Positions 911-44,833 of a DNA stretch of 64,000 nucleotides are shown here, piece after piece. The notes under the pieces are model-generated. The model was not told the origin of the DNA, searched no databases, and worked only from the letters and a program-made list of their open reading frames with translations. This stretch comes from Octopus sinensis. Lineage: Eukaryota. Within the stretch, counting starts at the first letter, position 1. Each line of letters starts with the position of its first letter. A program made the position numbers and the translations under genes. The stretch is from contig NC_043003.1 in the NCBI RefSeq assembly GCF_006345805.1, forward strand, positions 57,412,001 to 57,476,000, in the 5' to 3' direction.

Positions 911-956
911 CATACACACACTCACACACACATGTATATATTATGTATGTATATAA

Positions 957-1008
<52 letters not shown>

Positions 1009-1114
1009 GGCTATTTCTTCAACTGCAATAAAAGTCTCCAGACAATGCATACTCAGAAAATAACTCACATAGGTATAAGGGAAAAATAATGAAAGATTAC
1101 ATCCATATACGATA

Positions 1115-1175
1115 CCCGAGGACAGTCTGTTCTGGATTTGTGGTTAAAACGCCACTTTTCCTTCATCAGCTCAGA
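1115..1175 (-). ncRNA. Type I hammerhead ribozyme motif, copy 1 (GAAA reads GAA)
   Basis: Near-identical to 1674-1735 but one A short in the GAAA box (mutation or homopolymer error). Confidence 0.6.
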
Positions 1176-1673
1176 GATTTCTTCTGATTTAGATTTGAAA
1201 ATACTAAGAATCTAACATACCCGTCCGATATCTGTAACATCGGACAAACCATGCCAGACACCCAGTACTAGCGAATCCAAAAATACGAATGAGATCTATT
1301 ATTCTCCCTGTCCACCCACGTGAGTCATAGAGCATTACATTTCTACAGAGGTAAAAACTGCAGTTCAAATTCTTGGAGATTAAAGCATTATATTGTCATC
1401 AAAAAAAGGGGTAGATTACTTAATTGTTAATAAATTCGACCAAGCAGTATTCGGTATGTAAAGACCATTTACGGTATATTTGAAGTATTAATTATAAAAA
1501 TATGGTAAAGTAAAAAAATTCACTTTACTACACACCGAACTTTTCAGAAATAGCAGCCAAAAATTTGGCTATTTCTTCAACTGCAAATAAAAGTCTCCAG
1601 ACAATGCATTACTCAGAAAAAACTCACATAGGTATAAGGGAAAAATAATGAAAGATCACATCCATATACGATA

Positions 1674-1735
1674 CCCGAGGACAGTCTGTTTCTGGATTTG
1701 TGGGTAAAACGCCACTTTTCCTTCATCAGCTCAGA
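1674..1735 (-). ncRNA. Type I hammerhead ribozyme motif, copy 2
   Basis: Minus strand: UCUGAG-CUGAUGA-aGGA..GUGG/CCAC..UCCa-GAAA-CAG a CUG-UC-CUCGGG. Helix I pairs UCUGAG/CUCGGG; GUC cleavage triplet; first helix II position is an A-A mismatch. Confidence 0.75.
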
Positions 1736-2147
1736 GATTTCTTCTGATTTAGATTTGAAAATACTAAGAATCTAACATACCCGTCCGATATCTGTAACAT
1801 CGGACAAACCATGCCAGACACCAGTACTAGCGAATCCAAAAATACGAATGAGATCTATTATTCTCCCTGTCCACCCACATGAGTCATAGAGCATACATTC
1901 TACAGAGGTAAAAACTGCAGTTCAAATTCTTGGAGATTAAAGCATTATATTGTCATCAAAAAAAAAGGGGTAGAATTAATTAATTTTAATAAATTCGACC
2001 AAGCAGTATTCGGTATGTAAAGACCAGTTACGGTATATTTGTTGAAGAAATAGCCAAATTTTTGGCTGCTATTTCTGAAAAGTTCGGTGTGTGGTAAAGT
2101 GAATTTTTTTACTTTACCATATTTTTATAAATTAATACTTCAAATTA

Positions 2148-2480: not shown

Positions 2481-4029
2481 ATATCTTCCGAAGTGTTTAG
2501 AAATACTGGGCCTATCGTTAGAGTTGCTCTTCTCAATTCCTACGTCCCAGACAACAAACTCTAAGAAGCAGAGGTTCAGCAACTTTATTAGGAACTAGCT
2601 GCAACTGCAAAAGTGCGGCCATATTGCTTTTTATCGTTGGTGAGTGGAGATGATATTTGTGGTGGTGGTGGTGGGCGGGCGGCGGTGGTGGTGTTTGTCG
2701 TCGTGGCATTGTGGTGGTGAGTTTTGTTAGTGTTGATATTTTTACAGGTGATTGAAAGGCTGAATGTCAGTTAAAGAATATGCTAGAAAATAAATCGTCT
2801 GCCATTATGCAAAGATACATATATCAATCCATAAATCATTAAGCAAAGCATTTCAGCCATTTTAAACTTAACACCCACACATACATACACACACATACAT
2901 ACCTACATACATACACACATAAATACATACACACATACATTTACACACACATACATACCCACATACACACCCTATTACATATACACACAAATACATACAT
3001 AAATACATACGAGCACACATAAATATAAACGCACACATACGTATATACACACACATACATACACACACAAATACATACATACATACCTAAATACACATAT
3101 GCATATGGATATACATACATAAATACATAAATATACACATACATACGCACATACATACATAAATAATACATATACACATACATACATAAGTACACACACA
3201 CATATATATTCATACACACATACATACGCCCATACATACCTGCATACATAAATACATACATACACACACACATACATTCATTGATACATACATAAATACA
3301 TACATACACAAATACATACATGAATACATACATTCATACATATAAGTGTGTGAGTGTATGTGTAACACGTACAGACGATATACACGCACACTACCACGCG
3401 CATACATAAACAGAATACATAGACAAAGGCACGCACTCACACACATAAGGACATACATAGACAAACATATAAATACACACATAGACACAGACACGGACTC
3501 GCATACGTAAATATGAGTAAACACACACACACGCAGAAATACATACACATGAAAACACACGTACACATACATATATTTATATGAAACCTTTTCTTATCCA
3601 TCATACAAGACAAGGACAGCCGTGTCCAGATTTCACAGCCTTTGACAGTATATATAAATACATTCTATTCGCAAAAATATAATAAATCTGTTGATCTCAG
3701 AATATGTCATTTATCAAAGGAAGCAAGTAGGGTCACGTGGTGCGCTGGCAACCCTTATTCTAAAGTGTTAATTTATTGTCACAGCAGGGCGTGTATGTGT
3801 GACCCTGTATGTTGCAAATACATGTGGATATATTAAAATGTCTCGCTGTCTCTATCAATCATTATATCTCACCTTTGTCTCCCCCTATATATGTATGTAT
3901 ATACGTGTGTATATATATATATGTGTGCGTATGTGTGCGTGTGTGTATGCGTGTGTGCGTGTATGTATGTATATGTATATGTATATACATATGTATATAT
4001 ATATATATGTGTGTATGTGTGTGTTTGTG

Positions 4030-4062
<33 letters not shown>

Positions 4063-4069
4063 AGACATA

Positions 4070-4880
4070 CCGTATATACTCGTGTAAGAGTCGAATTTTT
4101 TATACCATTTTTTTAAGGTCAAATTTATGGGCTCGACTATTACATGGATACTACTTTTGAGGGGCTGAAATTCAAGCTAGAATCTGAAGTACCGCATCAG
4201 CAACAGAAGCTTAACTGATGATGACGATGATGACAATGATGATGATGATGATGATACAAGCCATTAAAATATGAAGTTTCATGAATGTGGGAAATGAAGG
4301 AAGCGACTGTCATCTCGGTTGTTGTAGGGACACTGGGATCATTAACAACTAGGTTTGAGAAATTTGTTGGAGAACTTTGGGTTGACATGAGGTAGGTATA
4401 TGCTCAGAAAACTACGCTATTGTGGACAGCGAGGATTTTGAAATTGGTACTTGGATGTCAAGTATCGTGAACATAGACCCTGTAAAAACCTCTGGAAACA
4501 GGTTTCTGTTCGCTCCTGAAAAAATAACGAGTGCAAATGAAATCGAGATCTGAGAAGTGAAATAAAATATGCTTGCAATATATCCTGTGCATACATTTTT
4601 AGTAATGGTGATGTAACACCCCTCAACACACGCGTAGTGCTCACTATTAAATGGTATTTTATTATAAGCACCGAGCATTTACCTATAGAGGCGGCTACAG
4701 TAAGGTAGCCACAAAACTGTATCAGTGTTATTTCTACGCACAGGATAATACGGTACCTTGACCCACAGATATCGTGAAATAGTTGGGTCGTGTTTTATAC
4801 GGGGTCTATGGAAAATGTTTAATTTTTGGCCAAAAATAAGGAGTTGACTTTTACATGAGATCGACTATTACTCGAGTAAT
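4070..4880. mobile_element. Tc2/Kanga-like (TA-CCGTA) non-autonomous DNA transposon, duplicated at 5479-6288
   Basis: ta|ccgtatatactcgtgtaagagtcga start and tcgactattactcgagta near the end form imperfect TIRs; similar to the elements at 13710 and 14753. Confidence 0.6.
4255..4565 (+). pseudogene. 3' fragment of an R4/Dong-like RLE non-LTR retrotransposon, duplicated at ~5663-5972
   Basis: Manual translation YKPLKYEVS*MWEMKEATVISVVVGTLG...AQKTTLLWTARILKLVL aligns with the C-terminus at 43828-44040 (YKDLLIEIEKMWHLKAVTIPV...VQKIVLTGTSHVLRRAL). Confidence 0.7.
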
Positions 4881-4884
4881 CGCA

Positions 4885-5086
4885 CGTGGACTTTTGGCGA
4901 TTTTTCCTACTTCTTCCTTCTTCCCCTTGGACTTTCCTGTTTTTCCTCTCTCCGAAGAAGAACTATGCTCTAAACGAAAAACAACTACTCTTTTCTTTCT
5001 CCGAGCGTCATTATTGATACTTTGCTTGTTCTACGTCCTCACGTTGTTTGCTTTTTCCATCTTTTTTCTGTTTTTTTTTAATTAAT

Positions 5087-5088
<2 letters not shown>
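4885..5088 (+). mobile_element. Penelope-like 3' end with degenerate minimal hammerhead, duplicated at ~6293-6500
   Basis: Homologous to 9296-9503; ccgaagaagaactatgctctaaacg is a mutated version of ccgacgaagagc..gctcgaaacg; ends in (TA)n. Confidence 0.55.
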
Positions 5089-5126
<38 letters not shown>

Positions 5127-5249
5127 GAGAGAGAGAGAGAGGGAGAGAGAAAGATATATATGTGTGTGTGGGTGTTTATTTATATACACAGACACATATA
5201 TGTATGTATGTTATGTATATATGTATATATATACATATATATATGTATA

Positions 5250-5285
<36 letters not shown>

Positions 5286-5423
5286 ATATACATATATATA
5301 CATATACATATATATACATATACATATATGTATGTATATATGCATATATATACATTATATAAATGTATATATATACATATATACATACGTATATATGTGT
5401 ATAATATATATATGTGTGTATGT

Positions 5424-5474
<51 letters not shown>

Positions 5475-6662
5475 CATACCGTATATACTCGTGTAAGAGT
5501 CGAATTTTTTATACCATTTTTTTAAGGTCAATTTATGGGCTCGACTATTACATGGATACTACTTTTGAGGGGCTGAAATTCAAGCTAGAATCTGAAGTAC
5601 CGCATCAGCAACAGAAGCTTAACTGATGATGACGATGATGACAATGATGATGATGATGATGATACAAGCCATTAAAATATGAAGTTTCATGAATGTGGAA
5701 ATGAAGGAAGCGACTGTCATCTCGGTTGTTGTAGGGACACTGGGATCATTAACAACTAGGTTTGAGAAATTTGTTGGAGAACTTTGGGTGACATGAGGTA
5801 GGTATATGCTCAGAAAACTACGCTATTGTGGACAGCGAGGATTTTGAAATTGGTACTTGGATGTCAAGTATCGTGAACATAGACCCTGTAAAAACCTCTG
5901 GAAACAGGTTTCTGTTCGCTCCTGAAAAAATAACGAGTGCAAATGAAATCGAGATCTGAGAAGTGAAATAAAAATATGCTTGCAATATATCCTGTGCATA
6001 CATTTTTAGTAATGGTGATGTAACACCCCTCAACACACGCGTAGTGCTCACTATTAAATGGTATTTTATTATAAGCACCGAGCATTTACCTATAGAGGCG
6101 GCTACAGTAAGGTAGCCACAAAACTGTATCAGTGTTATTTCTACGCACAGGATAATACGGTACCTTGACCCACAGATATCGTGAAATAGTTGGGTCGTGT
6201 TTTATACGGGGTCTATGGAAAATGTTTAATTTTGGCCAAAATAATAAGAGTTGACTTTTACATGAGATCGACTATTACTCGAGTAATCGCACGTGGACTT
6301 TTGGCGATTTTTCCTACTTCTTTCCTTCTTCCCTTTGGACTTTCCTGTTTTTCCTCTCTCCGAAGAAGAACTATGCTCTAAACGAAAACAAACAACTACT
6401 CTTTTCTTCTCCGAGCGTCATTATTGATACTTTGGCTTGTTCTACGTCCTCACGTTGTTTGCTTTTTCCATCTTTTTTTCTGTTTTTTTTAATTAATTAC
6501 ATATATATATATTATATATATATATATATATACAGAGAGAGAGAGAGAGAGGGAGAGAGAAAGATATATATGTGTGTGTGGGTGTTTATTTATATACACA
6601 GACACATATATGTATGTATGTTATGTATATATGTATATATATACATATATATAGTATATATA

Positions 6663-6694
<32 letters not shown>

Positions 6695-6805
6695 ATATAC
6701 ATATATATACATATACTTATATACATATACATATATGTATTATATATGCATATATATACATTATATAAATGTATATATATACATATATACATACGTATAT
6801 ATGTG

Positions 6806-6844
<39 letters not shown>

Positions 6845-19764: not shown

Positions 19765-19837
<73 letters not shown>

Positions 19838-19841
<4 letters not shown>

Positions 19842-20200
19842 AGTAGGTGAATGAATTATCCTATGTTTATCGTCAGCATGGAAAATTCGTTTAACCGAAA
19901 CCTGGATAGCAAATTCACGTCGGAAAACACGGTTGAAGCGACCTGTCAAGGGTAGAAACTCCGGTTTCTTGTGTAGAAATTTGTGTGTTGTATATGAATG
20001 AATGAAAAATGGAGTCGAACGAAGATGTTAACAAAATTCCTTTACTCTCGACATATCTTTCGAAGACAGCATATTTTTATTCCGAAGGAATAAAAGGTGC
20101 ATTATGCAATCTTCTCATCAGGAAAGATAAGGAGGCTCTCTCAACCACAAGACGAACAAAAATTTCGATTATTGCCTACATGGTGATCACAGCGATAATG
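19838..20200 (-). mobile_element. Short hammerhead-containing element ending in (TA)n
   Basis: Contains the HHR at 20045-20126; its 3' end abuts (TA)n at ~19837. Confidence 0.6.
20045..20126 (-). ncRNA. Type I hammerhead ribozyme with long helix II, one helix III mismatch
   Basis: Minus strand: CUUUC-CUGAUGA-GAAGA..GCAUA..UUUUAUUCC uuc GGAAUAAAA..UAUGC..UCUUC-GAAA-gAUAUG-UC-GAGAG. Confidence 0.75.
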
Positions 20201-20230
20201 AGTATATGCATATACATATATCTATATCTG

Positions 20231-24855: not shown

Positions 24856-25370
24856 TCATGTGTACATAAGTGGTAATACGTGCTGTACGTATGTGTTTCT
24901 ATGCATAATTATATTTCTGTGAGTTTGTGCTCGTGTGTGCGTACGAGTAGAAGTGTATATAATCTACGCCTGATAGGTAGGGAAAGATGGTGGCCATTTA
25001 AAGTTTGCTCCAAAAGCTTGTTTCACATTTTGGCGCACGCTCAGTAATTTTGAAGAAAGGGACAGTCTATTACATCGGCCCCTTATTTTATCGAATCCTA
25101 AAAGATGAAAGGCAAAGTCCACCGAATATTGGCCACTATTGAGTGAAGTATCTCACACAACGTAGAAATTCTATATCTCTCTCACATCTTCCTTCGTCTC
25201 TCACACATACAAACTCACCCGATCACATTCGATTTGGATCTCCACATCACTCAATGTTTCTCGACGTCCTAGATCTTTCTCTCATTTTCTATACCTTTCT
25301 CTTTCCTCCACCGTTTTCTATATCTTTCACTTTCTACTATTTTCTGTATATATATATATATATATATATA

Positions 25371-26054
25371 ACATTATATAATTAGGGCTTAGTAAAATAA
25401 ATTACTTTGCCACATACTGAACTTAGTAGAAATAGCAGCCAAAAAAAAATTTATTAGCATTTCTACTACTTAAAGAAAATTTCTCTCAGATAATGTTTAC
25501 TCCAGACAGCTCACGAAGGTTTGGAGGTAAATACAGAAAAATATCACAAGTACATAGATCGTTTGAGTACGTCAACGTTTCAAGATTAGCCAAATAAAAT
25601 CAGCATTTCTGATTAGCCAAATAAAATCAGCATTGGAGTGGTTCATCTGAAGCGACAAGTTCGCTGATAGGTAAAGTTCCTTCTTTTTAGTGTTTCCAAA
25701 TCCAAATTAAGAATTTTGAGCTGACGAAAGAAATGCTGATTTTATTGGCTAATCTTGAAACGTTGACGTACTCAAACGATGTATTACTTGTGATATTTTT
25801 CTGTATTTACCTCCAAACCTTCGTGAGCTGTCTGGAGTAAACTTATCTGAGAGAAATTTTCTTTAAGTAGTAGAAATGCTAATAAAATTTTTTTTTGGCT
25901 GCTATTTCTACTAAGTTCAGTATGTGGCAAAGTAATTTATTTTACTAAGCCCTAATTATATAATGTAATATTTTGAATTCGCCTTAAATGGTCCTTTTAC
26001 ATACTGAACACTTGGTGAAATTGATTAATTAATTAATTTTACCCTCAATTGTTG
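25371..26054 (+). mobile_element. Fold-back hammerhead-containing element (Penelope-like inverted pLTR arrangement) in (TA)n
   Basis: 25371-25610 is the near-perfect reverse complement of 25729-25966; ~88-nt unpaired 3' tail; homologous to the 1006-2145 unit (ttggctgctatttct..aagttc.gt.tgtgg.aaagt; taaatggtc.tttacatac). Confidence 0.8.
25715..25776 (+). ncRNA. Type I hammerhead ribozyme, intact core
   Basis: UUUGAG-CUGACGA-AAGA..UCUU-GAAA-CGU ug ACG-UA-CUCAAA; 6-bp helix I; predicted cleavage after A25770 (GUA). Confidence 0.88.
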
Positions 26055-35569: not shown

Positions 35570-36200
35570 AATCCTGATTCGTCAAAAATACTGATGACGT
35601 ATTACCTCAGTGGGCAAGCTATTGTCACCCTGCTTGGTCGGTTTCCCCACACGATACAGCTATGAGTCAGATCCGATTCTGATTGGTCAAAACATTGATG
35701 ACGTCTCGTTCCGCTGGACTAGCCACCTAACAGGATACAGTCATGGGTCAGATCTAATACACCTTTAGGTCAGACCCGATTCTGATTGGCCAAAACATTG
35801 ATGACGTCTCGTTCTGTTGGACTAGCCACCTAACGGGATGATTGGTCAAAATATGAATGACGTCTCGTTCTGCTGGACGAGCCACCAAACGGGTTGATTG
35901 GTCAAAACATTGATGACGTCCCGTTTTGCTGGACTAGCCACCTAACGGGATGATTGGTCAAAACATTGATGACGTCTCGTTCCGCTGGACTAGCCACCTA
36001 ACAGGATACAGTCATGGATCAGATCTAATTTCGATTCGCCAAAAAAAAGGATGACGTATTTCTCCCGTGGCCAAACCGTCGTTCCGCTTGATCTGTTTCC
36101 TAACAGGATATATTCGTTGAGACTGGGTTTTGATTGGTTTGGAACTATATGACGTCAGTGAAAAGTGCAAGTGAGACAGCTAAGCTGAGCTGATATAAAC
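35570..36200. promoter_or_regulatory. Minisatellite of about 8 CCAAT-box plus CRE-like modules, followed by TATAAA
   Basis: gattggtcaaaacattgatgacgtc repeats in ~56-105-bp units; perfect TGACGTCA at 36150-36157; TATAAA at 36194-36199. The repeat is clear, the regulatory function is inferred. Confidence 0.5.
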
Positions 36201-36319
36201 CTAAACAATCACAAAATTCACCAAAACTATACGAACAGACACCAACCAAAAATCATTACAGTTGCTCCCATTGGAACACAAGGTAAAACCTAAAATGAAC
36301 TCCTCGCTTTTTCAAGAAC

Positions 36320-36506
36320 ATGAATTTTTTATATTTGAGTCTATTGAATGCATGTCACAATTATGTACTACTACATCATACTCTTTAAACATATAGCATG
36401 GACTCGCTTTAATATATATGAATTTTTTATATTAGACTCTATTGAATATATGCCACAATTATGAACTATTACATCATACTCTTTAAACATATAGCATGAA
36501 CTCTCT
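36320..36506. repeat. Tandem duplication, ~98-bp unit
   Basis: tacatcatactctttaaacatatagcatg occurs twice. Confidence 0.85.
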
Positions 36507-36635
36507 TTTTTATATATAATTTTTTTTTTATAAGGTTCGTCATTTCAAGAACCAAAACATGTTAAATAAATAATGTATATATAAAAATTAAAATTTGTCT
36601 AATATAGCAGCATTTTCAAACTTCATTTTTTACAA

Positions 36636-36669
<34 letters not shown>

Positions 36670-39164: not shown

Positions 39165-40114
39165 CGAGGAGGTATCATAAAGTTGCTGGTCTAGTTCTGT
39201 AGCGCGCCAACAGATGGTAGCACACGGCTGCGTGCGCAGTGAGAGGTAGCAGTGACCTTCATGAGACAGTGTACTGAGTGACATCGTGGAGAAAATTCAT
39301 CAGCTTGTGCATGAGGAACATCGGACGACAACCAGCGACATTGTTAATGTTGTTTGTCTGCCGTATAGGTCCGTGCGAGCAATCCTAACATCTGGATTCT
39401 TCACGATGACAATGCACCCTGTCACCGAGCCGTTCTCACTCGTCAGTTACTCGCCAAAAAACGACATGGTATCGCTTCTGCTCCCGCGCTATTTGCCAGA
39501 TTTAGAAACCTGCAGACTTCTATCTCTTGCCCAAGAGGAAAATGCAGTTCAAAGGTTTCCCTTTTGATATCGTTGTAGAGATCGAGAACGAATCGCCGAT
39601 GGCCTTCCACTTGCTTACGGAAAACGACTTCCAGGCCGGATTTCAAAATTGGCAGGAACCCTGGGTCCAGTGTATTGCTGTGCAACGTGACGATATTGTT
39701 GATGTTGTTTGTCTGTAGTATGGGTCTGTTCGAGCAATCCTAACATCTGGATTCTTCACCTCGACAATACACGCTGTCACCGAGCCGTCCTTACTCGTGA
39801 GTTACTCGCCAAAAACGATATGGTATCGCTTCTGCTCCCGCCCTATTTGACAGATTTAGAAACCTACAGACTTCCATATCTTGCCCAAGAGGAGAGTGCC
39901 GGTCAAAGGTTTCCCCTTTGATATCGTTGTAGAGATCGAGAACGAATCGCCGATGGCCTTCCACTTGCTTACCGAAAACGATTTCCAGGCCGGATTCCAA
40001 AATTGGCAGGAACCCTGGGACCAGAATATTGCTGCGCAACGTGACTATTTCGAAGGAGATGCTGTTAAAACTTATTAAACATAATGAGTTCAGGAACCTT
40101 TTAATGCCAACTCG
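39165..40114 (+). mobile_element. Mariner remnant with tandem duplication of the catalytic C-terminal ~352 bp
   Basis: WILHDDNAPCH and YLPDL (YSPDL-like) motifs occur twice; imperfect cgagg...ctcg ends; frameshifted. Confidence 0.8.
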
Positions 40115-43656: not shown

Positions 43657-44665
43657 TTTTTTTTTTTTTTTTTTCTTCTTTCAAATATGCTTCCATTTCT
43701 TGCCGAGTGTCTTCCCGACTCCTAGGGCAAAGAAACTCATAGGTACATTGGTAGGCCATTAGACTAAACAATAGTTCGTTCATTTTTTTTTTTAAGTTAA
43801 ATAAAAATACATGAGCAGCAACAGTTCTCACATCGACAATGCTCTTCTCAATACGTGTGAGGTACCAGTTAAGACAATCTTTTGCACTTCTTGCAGGGAT
43901 GGTAGCCAGGGATCATTCTCATATAATTTTCGGTTCCCTTCTTGGTCATTCCTAGTGCTCCTACGATCAACTGGTATTGTAACCGCCTTGAGATGCCACA
44001 TTTTCTCAATTTCAATGAGTAGGTCTTTATATTTTTCTGAGCTTGTCAAACTCTTTCGCTGAGATATTATGATCACAGGGGATGCTCATGTCAATCAATA
44101 AGCAAACTTTATTGTTTTGTCTTTCACAAACAATATCTGGTTTATTGGCCTTGATGGTTCGGTCTGTATGTACTGGAAAGTCCCACAGAATCGTTACATT
44201 TTCTCCTTCAGTTACAGCCTCAGGGTGGTGATTATACCACTTGTTGGCAGTTTTGATATTGTAATGCCGACTTATTAGCCAGTGGAGATATTGGCCAACT
44301 CTGTCAGGTCTTAATTTATACTCCACTGGTGCTAAGACTTTACATCCAGAGATTAGGTGGTCCACTGTTTCAATCATGTCGTTGGCAGAATCGGCATTTT
44401 GGGTCTGCTCCATTTTTCATCACATTGGCCTCGTAGTTCCGGGTTAATAGGCTTTGATCTTGAGCAGCCAGGATGAAACATTCGCTCTCTGCTTTTAGCC
44501 CTGAGCTCCGTAGCCACTGATGGGTTTGCTTCTGGTCAACATCAGCTTGTTTGCTGCGGGTCACATATTTGCCGTGCAGAGGTTTCTCCTCCCACCTATC
44601 AGCCAATTGCTCGTGCGCTTTTTTCATTGCCATCATTTTCACCTTCTTTGCAACAATAGTTGCCG
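43657..44665 (-). pseudogene. 5'-truncated R4/Dong-type non-LTR retrotransposon (zinc knuckle and restriction-like endonuclease)
   Basis: Frameshifted ORFs with KPLHGKY, AAQDQSLLTRNY, CRFC..ETVDHLISGC and WDFPVHTDRTIKANKPDIV..LLIDMSIP..KE..K..KY; poly(A) followed by (TAA)n. Confidence 0.9.
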
Positions 44666-44833
44666 TAAGAGTGCAGTGCATGTCAGATAAGTGACACTGG
44701 GGTAAAATATACGAAGCCCAGTATACCCATCATGGCTATACGTCTGATAAGGGTACATCAGGCACATCACAGCTTATTTTGCTGGGTACGATGGAAAGTA
44801 TAAATGTCCACAGCAAACACACTAATCATATAC

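Follow-up and report, generated by a model that had tools for sequence, protein, structure and literature searches.

The insertion analysed here lies in a window of 64,000 nucleotides of Octopus sinensis DNA and consists of about 1.85 head-to-tail copies of a 559-nt unit on the minus strand, with a short inverted arm joined to them (Table 1). In a self-comparison of the window, positions 1008-1482 matched 1566-2041 with 96.7% identity over 481 columns, and a bit score of 761 excludes chance as the source of this match. The two units differ by five substitutions and ten small indels, the latter almost wholly in homopolymers. Each unit has one hammerhead ribozyme (HHR) motif, the predicted cut sites being 559 nt apart, as the original prediction had it; the minus-strand cleavage position that it named, 1679, agrees with the predicted GUC cut of the upstream ribozyme. 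Its reading of 1006..2145 as a two-unit tandem is confirmed, with corrections. The tandem is there, but the second unit is partial, which is why the array comprises only about 1.85 units, and the last 105 nt had been overlooked as an inverted copy of 1478-1581 (98.1% identity). Tandem Repeats Finder (TRF) missed the 559-nt repeat because it was run with a period limit of 500.

Table 1. Features of the two ribozyme-bearing insertions, in positions of the window.
Feature	Position	Strand	Remarks
(TA)n target microsatellite	935..1007	.	at the element's 3' end; TRF
3' tail	1008..1120	-	monomer positions 1-114, after the downstream cut site
Downstream type I hammerhead	1115..1175	-	core GAAC not GAAAC; predicted cut 1121/1120
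Full cut-to-cut monomer	1121..1679	-	559 nt
Upstream type I hammerhead	1674..1735	-	core intact; predicted cut 1680/1679
5'-truncated second unit	1680..2041	-	monomer 198-559
Inverted arm	2041..2145	+	monomer 99-202; head-to-head with the main arm
Family B copy	25366..26045	+	hammerhead at 25721; inverted arm 25366-25610; (TA)n on both sides

The insertion is flanked by (TA)n on the left and by SINE-like sequence on the right, the latter following a 13-nt duplication at the outer end of the inverted arm, and no target-site duplication is visible in these flanks. The 559-nt monomer has a GC content of 34.5% and is non-coding, the longest ATG-initiated open reading frame (ORF) that overlaps the element being 48 aa. 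Three further stretches of the window were recorded in passing: a sequence at 3886-6844 that is duplicated in tandem (period about 1.4 kb, 95% identity); a 354-bp two-copy tandem of 90% identity at 39336-40048, lying over a transposase remnant which we take to be mariner-like; and ORF fragments at 44027-44729 (minus strand) that resemble the endonuclease end of a retrotransposon, presumably of the R4/Dong type.

The two minus-strand ribozyme cores (CUGAUGA) begin at 1729 and 1169. After each of them come helix II, GAAA, a palindromic helix III and GUC, and helix I closes the whole, an order that corresponds to type I topology. The core at 1729 is intact, and the one at 1169 is one A short of GAAA in the assembly. 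Among 127 family units from the best 39 of 1308 candidate loci, the identical one-base loss occurs in four and the core end is exact in 106. The missing A may be a consensus error or may mark a dead ribozyme and, given that it affects one of only two cores, the window locus may be a dead daughter. At the gathering score of Rfam no hammerhead was reported in the window element, and E values up to 10 added unrelated weak matches only. The predicted active fold of the ribozyme has -9.6 kcal/mol compared with a minimum of -13.3 kcal/mol, and the ribozyme folded alone is no better than shuffled sequences (z about 0). The whole monomer, folded one base out of register, is strongly self-paired (z -7.6, with 0 of 100 shuffles as good), and 65% of it is paired when it is folded as a circle. 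Transcripts with these ribozymes are predicted to self-cleave into monomers.

A dispersed ribozyme family and its relatives

The assembly searched comprises 2.72 Gb in 13,516 contigs. The best 39 of 1308 candidate loci contain 195 matches to the 559-nt unit, of which the full-length ones are 94-98% identical; as these 39 loci were picked for the best full-unit matches, the sample favours long arrays. At least two ribozyme-bearing units within one arm are present in 26 of them. Exact ribozyme-junction motifs numbered 298 genome-wide (254 + 44), and the reversed controls gave 0. The window element is one copy of a young family dispersed throughout the genome, termed family A here.

Related families have units of about 565-575 nt. 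Family B forms tandems with units of 561-567 nt in six loci (best 40 of 2299 candidates), and its alignment with the window unit runs end to end with a score of 407 versus a shuffled maximum of 174. The homology of the window unit to an element at 25 kb, on which the original prediction had relied, was recovered at 74-79% identity over 72-160 nt. The point where the 25-kb element ends continues in the window unit into the next ribozyme, in line with the circular permutation that had been claimed. Family E, with a unit of about 575 nt (best 40 of 2713 candidates), and family D, represented by locus L177, are further relatives. Among families A, B and E, with family D also compared, helices I and III retain their pairing through two-sided changes, which points to selection on the RNA structure of the ribozyme; the cleavage triplet in families A, B and E is GUC or GUA. 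This covariation was read motif by motif, the alignment (A3) being one column off in its 3' half.

Other hammerhead-like motifs were seen as well. In the units of locus L051, a locus-private change at monomer position 505 replaces a U-G pair in helix I by C-G. Motifs with a perfect helix I that are unlike those of families A-E lie at about 730 (minus strand) in L230 and at 207 (plus strand) in L216. Window positions 19827-20203 match a stretch of L125 with 82% identity and contain CUGAUGA at 20121 (minus strand), resembling a hammerhead-like motif of L201; this is probably a decayed copy of another ribozyme-bearing element.

Insertion ends and allele patterns

All counts of ends, arms and alleles given in this section for loci of family A refer to the best 39 of 1308 candidates, unless stated to be genome-wide. 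Each arm of an array comprises between about 1.1 and 8.6 units, and two arms are joined head-to-head in 19 of the 39 loci. Outer 3' ends adjoin (TA)4+ in 53 of 58 cases, compared with a background of 13%, and 45 of the 58 fall into two AT-rich windows at monomer positions 187-206 or 289-291. The cut site itself accounts for 0 of the 58, since three ends first scored at 559 continue past it, and this indicates that the RNA template was continuous through the ribozyme. The outer 5' ends (20) are scattered over monomer positions 24 to 484, and each of the 39 loci has its 5' end inside the unit, through truncation or inversion. Junction 16-mers are exact in 113 of 116 cases. No 8-nt window of the monomer reaches at least seven matches in the TA-likeness profile, which suggests that the microhomology used for priming is short. 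Partial tandems, 5' truncation, an inverted 5' copy and a microsatellite target, as expected of a non-autonomous Penelope-like element, are present; partial tandems, an inverted 5'-truncated copy and a microsatellite bias are described for Penelope-like elements (PMC8557442).

This survey supports the original prediction and bears out its expectation that other copies differ in their permutation points, with arrays of up to about nine units and alleles that run through whole arrays. The points vary, but they are not random, being clustered at AT-rich sites. A uniform set of copies with shared fixed ends and no permutation, which would have spoken against the original prediction, was not what the DNA revealed.

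Units were compared after masking of homopolymer columns, which kept 345 of 559 columns. Substitutions amount to 0.40% within a locus, 1.75% between loci and 0.38% between opposite arms; the two units of the window differ by about 1%, above the family mean. At loci with at least three covering units, 40 minor alleles are array-wide, five are partial and 65 are single. Three alleles absent from the other 38 of the 39 loci were tested genome-wide. A two-variant haplotype occurs genome-wide only at L051, in three units on each of the inverted arms, and a second local allele only at L052, in four of four units. The third, a helix III allele, was rejected as locus-private because it is a subfamily marker found at 30 loci; privacy among the 39 loci alone therefore means little. 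This minor helix III allele makes up 44 of all 298 motifs. On contigs C1-C7, where both allele lists are complete, it is present on both arms of five two-armed loci, on neither arm of 12 and on one arm only in 0.

These patterns are explained most simply if a single circular monomer was the template and was copied over several turns, starting at both sides of the break. A similar pattern could also stem from a source array that the assembly lacks, or from later conversion.

Template, enzyme and alternative explanations

Penelope-like elements are abundant in the genome, as judged from GIY-YIG matches (best 150 of 5029 candidates). They include a young family with 781-aa ORFs containing reverse transcriptase (RT) and GIY-YIG domains, whose copies are 98-99% alike and end in (TA)n. 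Different hammerhead-like motifs of their own are present in Penelope-like families at L232 4086, L131 5632 and L145 2494 (all plus strand), one of these having the U3-A8 core variant. We searched for a partner in Penelope-like loci obtained with the GIY-YIG family and three protein queries, using blastn and a profile (R1, 82 + 40 sources); these loci are a small share of thousands of candidates. Among the loci checked in this way, no autonomous element with the terminal sequence of the 559-nt unit was found. Matches in L105, L112, L177, L190 and L232 were rejected as partners, being nested, separately inserted relatives, and there was one weak opposite-strand match in L100. An ORF with RT and GIY-YIG was likewise absent from the 559-nt element in the window and in the family loci checked, and (TA)n separates the unit from the ORFs close to L061 and L067, which terminate in 3' ends of their own. 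Two side observations concern Penelope-like sequences. L133 7971-8768 (plus strand) belongs to a family of Penelope-like endonucleases for which a first look gave 35,773 candidates, the best copies having about 94% protein identity, and gave no Pfam match; window positions 35682-36642 hold 3'-region fragments of the 781-aa family, including a 56-bp tandem.

None of the sequencing runs that contain the unit is recorded as RNA. Four of them were used, as contigs only and with no silent control stretch. Run X1, tentatively taken to be RNA, contains a close variant of the unit as one 597-nt contig at a depth of 163, which includes the cut site and, having the same stretch at both ends, can be closed into a loop; the depths of the other related contigs of this run are 2-6.5. 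The unit is covered by a few contigs in run X3 and by 477 fragments in run X15. Given that circles and linear multimers alike yield self-closing contigs, the X1 contig is suggestive only as a trace of a circular unit RNA.

That the window element is a retrozyme-type non-autonomous element can be stated with high confidence, and the partner of the family is likely to be a Penelope-like element. We also think that a circular monomer probably served as the template. The explanation as a whole, namely a non-coding, circle-derived family of 559 nt that is reverse-transcribed into (TA)n by a Penelope-like enzyme, appears fairly probable to us. According to this proposal, the transcript would be cut at the hammerheads, either as a monomer or as a dimer via the palindromic helix III, and the released monomer would likely be circularised by a host ligase. 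Dimeric hammerheads formed via a palindromic helix III are described in PMC4209133. A nicked (TA)n strand could then prime at AT-rich sequences located 190-290 nt 3' of the cut site, and rolling synthesis with strand displacement would likely copy the circle round and round. Priming from both sides of the (TA)n break would give two arms. The enzyme would be borrowed from an autonomous Penelope-like element.

The template can be pictured differently, with uncleaved linear multimeric transcripts being copied by target-primed reverse transcription (TPRT) and the arrays later growing and becoming homogenised through unequal exchange and gene conversion. A later growth of retrozyme arrays has been proposed, and cleavage was seen in just one of nine dimer elements tested (bioRxiv 10.64898/2026.07.22.740005). 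An RNA copied intact across the ribozyme, as implied by the absence of 3' ends at the cut site, would suit a linear multimer, and so would an allele at L044 whose recurrence keeps the same phase in the two arms, a pattern expected from a multimeric template. Under linear twin priming, the start of one arm should coincide with the priming point of the other, and the arm joint of the window fits (202 versus 198), as do two other loci. These three fits within 10 nt among the 19 two-armed loci have to be set against 1.4 expected by chance, however, and the other 16 break the rule; in six of the 19, both arms have more than one unit. Linear copying alone, we infer, could not lengthen an array, and it does not readily account for the locus-private haplotype on both inverted arms of L051 or for opposite arms that are as similar as units within one arm. 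We regard linear multimers as a rather unlikely template. Template jumping is known for non-LTR reverse transcriptases, and ribozyme-released linear monomers copied serially by end-to-end jumping would, without any circle, likewise yield head-to-tail arrays joined at the cut site. The exactness of nearly all junction 16-mers (113/116) and the uniformity of arrays despite several coexisting subfamilies make this quite improbable.

Other alternatives concern the nature of the unit rather than its template. The 559-nt unit might be the mere pseudo-LTR end of an autonomous Penelope-like element left after 5' truncation. The ribozyme type, the inversions and the (TA)n targets are indeed typical of Penelope-like elements (PMC8557442, PMC4209133), and sampling by full units could miss a long element with a partial unit. 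Against this stand the 5' ends, which lie inside the unit by truncation or inversion at every one of the 39 loci, the ORFs at L061 and L067, which are outside (TA)n with 3' ends of their own, and the profile of the shared region, which matches only nested copies in Penelope-like loci, so that we hold this explanation to be very improbable. It is hardly credible that the tandem is an artefact of the assembly, or that it is an inert satellite whose ribozyme-like motif is due to chance. The differences between units are mostly homopolymer indels, as is typical of long-read consensus errors, but arrays of the unit are found on many contigs, where their flanks are distinct and their alleles specific to the locus, the helices covary between families, and the unit is present in independent sequencing runs.

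Taken further, the proposal of a circular template would describe a superfamily of ribozyme circles of about 560-575 nt that transpose, each insertion deriving from a single circle that was read as many as ten times round, beginning at both sides of the break; we consider the chances of this wider view to be even. If true, rolling-circle reverse transcription would have left, in these arrays, a direct footprint in an animal genome, and the family would be a natural system for writing circles into the genome with defined priming sites.

Comparison with known retrozymes and Penelope-like elements

As far as can be judged from DNA, the window family has the features of a non-LTR retrozyme, a class which is itself already described. 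Non-LTR retrozymes of coral, mussel and axolotl are expressed as RNAs of about 170-400 nt, both linear and circular, and a LINE or Penelope-like enzyme has been proposed to copy a primed circle to tandem cDNA (PMC7229834). Like the octopus family, these metazoan retrozymes are repeated head-to-tail, do not code for protein and have a single type I hammerhead in each unit, a GC content below 45%, no LTR features and a highly self-paired monomer (PMC7229834). They differ in the unit, which is about 170-400 nt versus 559 nt in octopus, and in that their circle is demonstrated whereas that of octopus is a prediction from DNA (PMC7229834). Insertion ends, inverted arms and the sharing of alleles are not analysed in the accessible parts of that paper.

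Vertebrate retrozymes likewise consist of tandem type I hammerhead units, mostly seven or fewer, and co-occur with Penelope-like elements; their units of 51-972 bp are tied to pseudo-LTRs and regarded as non-autonomous Penelope-like derivatives (bioRxiv 10.64898/2026.07.22.740005). The sampling of that preprint covers 31 vertebrates, three insects and one anthozoan, with no mollusc in the portion available. In Xenopus, 24 of 57 families match known elements, 21 of the 22 being Penelope-like (bioRxiv 10.64898/2026.07.22.740005), whereas no partner was found among the octopus loci checked.

Penelope-like elements and the Chlamys elements (MRC1) share with the octopus family partial tandems, 5' truncation, an inverted 5' copy and a (TA)n bias, as well as multicopy head-to-tail non-autonomous insertions and an unpaired base on the 5' side of helix II (PMC8557442, PMC4209133). 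The octopus unit differs from Penelope-like elements in having no ORF, a longer helix II and a palindromic helix III of 3-4 bp, which is not the minimal form. Canonical hammerheads are absent from Naiad and Chlamys (PMC8557442, PMC4209133). Plant LTR retrozymes, which are of comparable size (600-800 nt), resemble the octopus proposal in that a circle is released between two hammerheads (PMC4918200, PMC7229834). They have a type III ribozyme, LTRs, PBS/PPT, a 4-bp duplication and a high GC content (PMC7229834); a plant-type LTR retrozyme was rejected for the octopus unit in view of its type I topology, its GC content of 34.5% and the lack of a shared flank duplication.

In the accessible text of a survey of cephalopod repeats the word ribozyme is absent (PMC8967140), and we found no description of an octopus ribozyme family, or of allele sharing across inverted arms, in the open-access literature searched. 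The copying step is the least tested one in the life of a retrozyme, and a young octopus family makes it accessible to experiments. Retrozyme arrays have been attributed to a primed circle (PMC7229834) and to later local amplification (bioRxiv 10.64898/2026.07.22.740005). Locus-private alleles on both inverted arms, together with two priming windows, make these models distinguishable by sequencing and RNA assays. Whereas the vertebrate preprint proposes that arrays are amplified locally after insertion (bioRxiv 10.64898/2026.07.22.740005), the octopus data favour arrays that were made at insertion.
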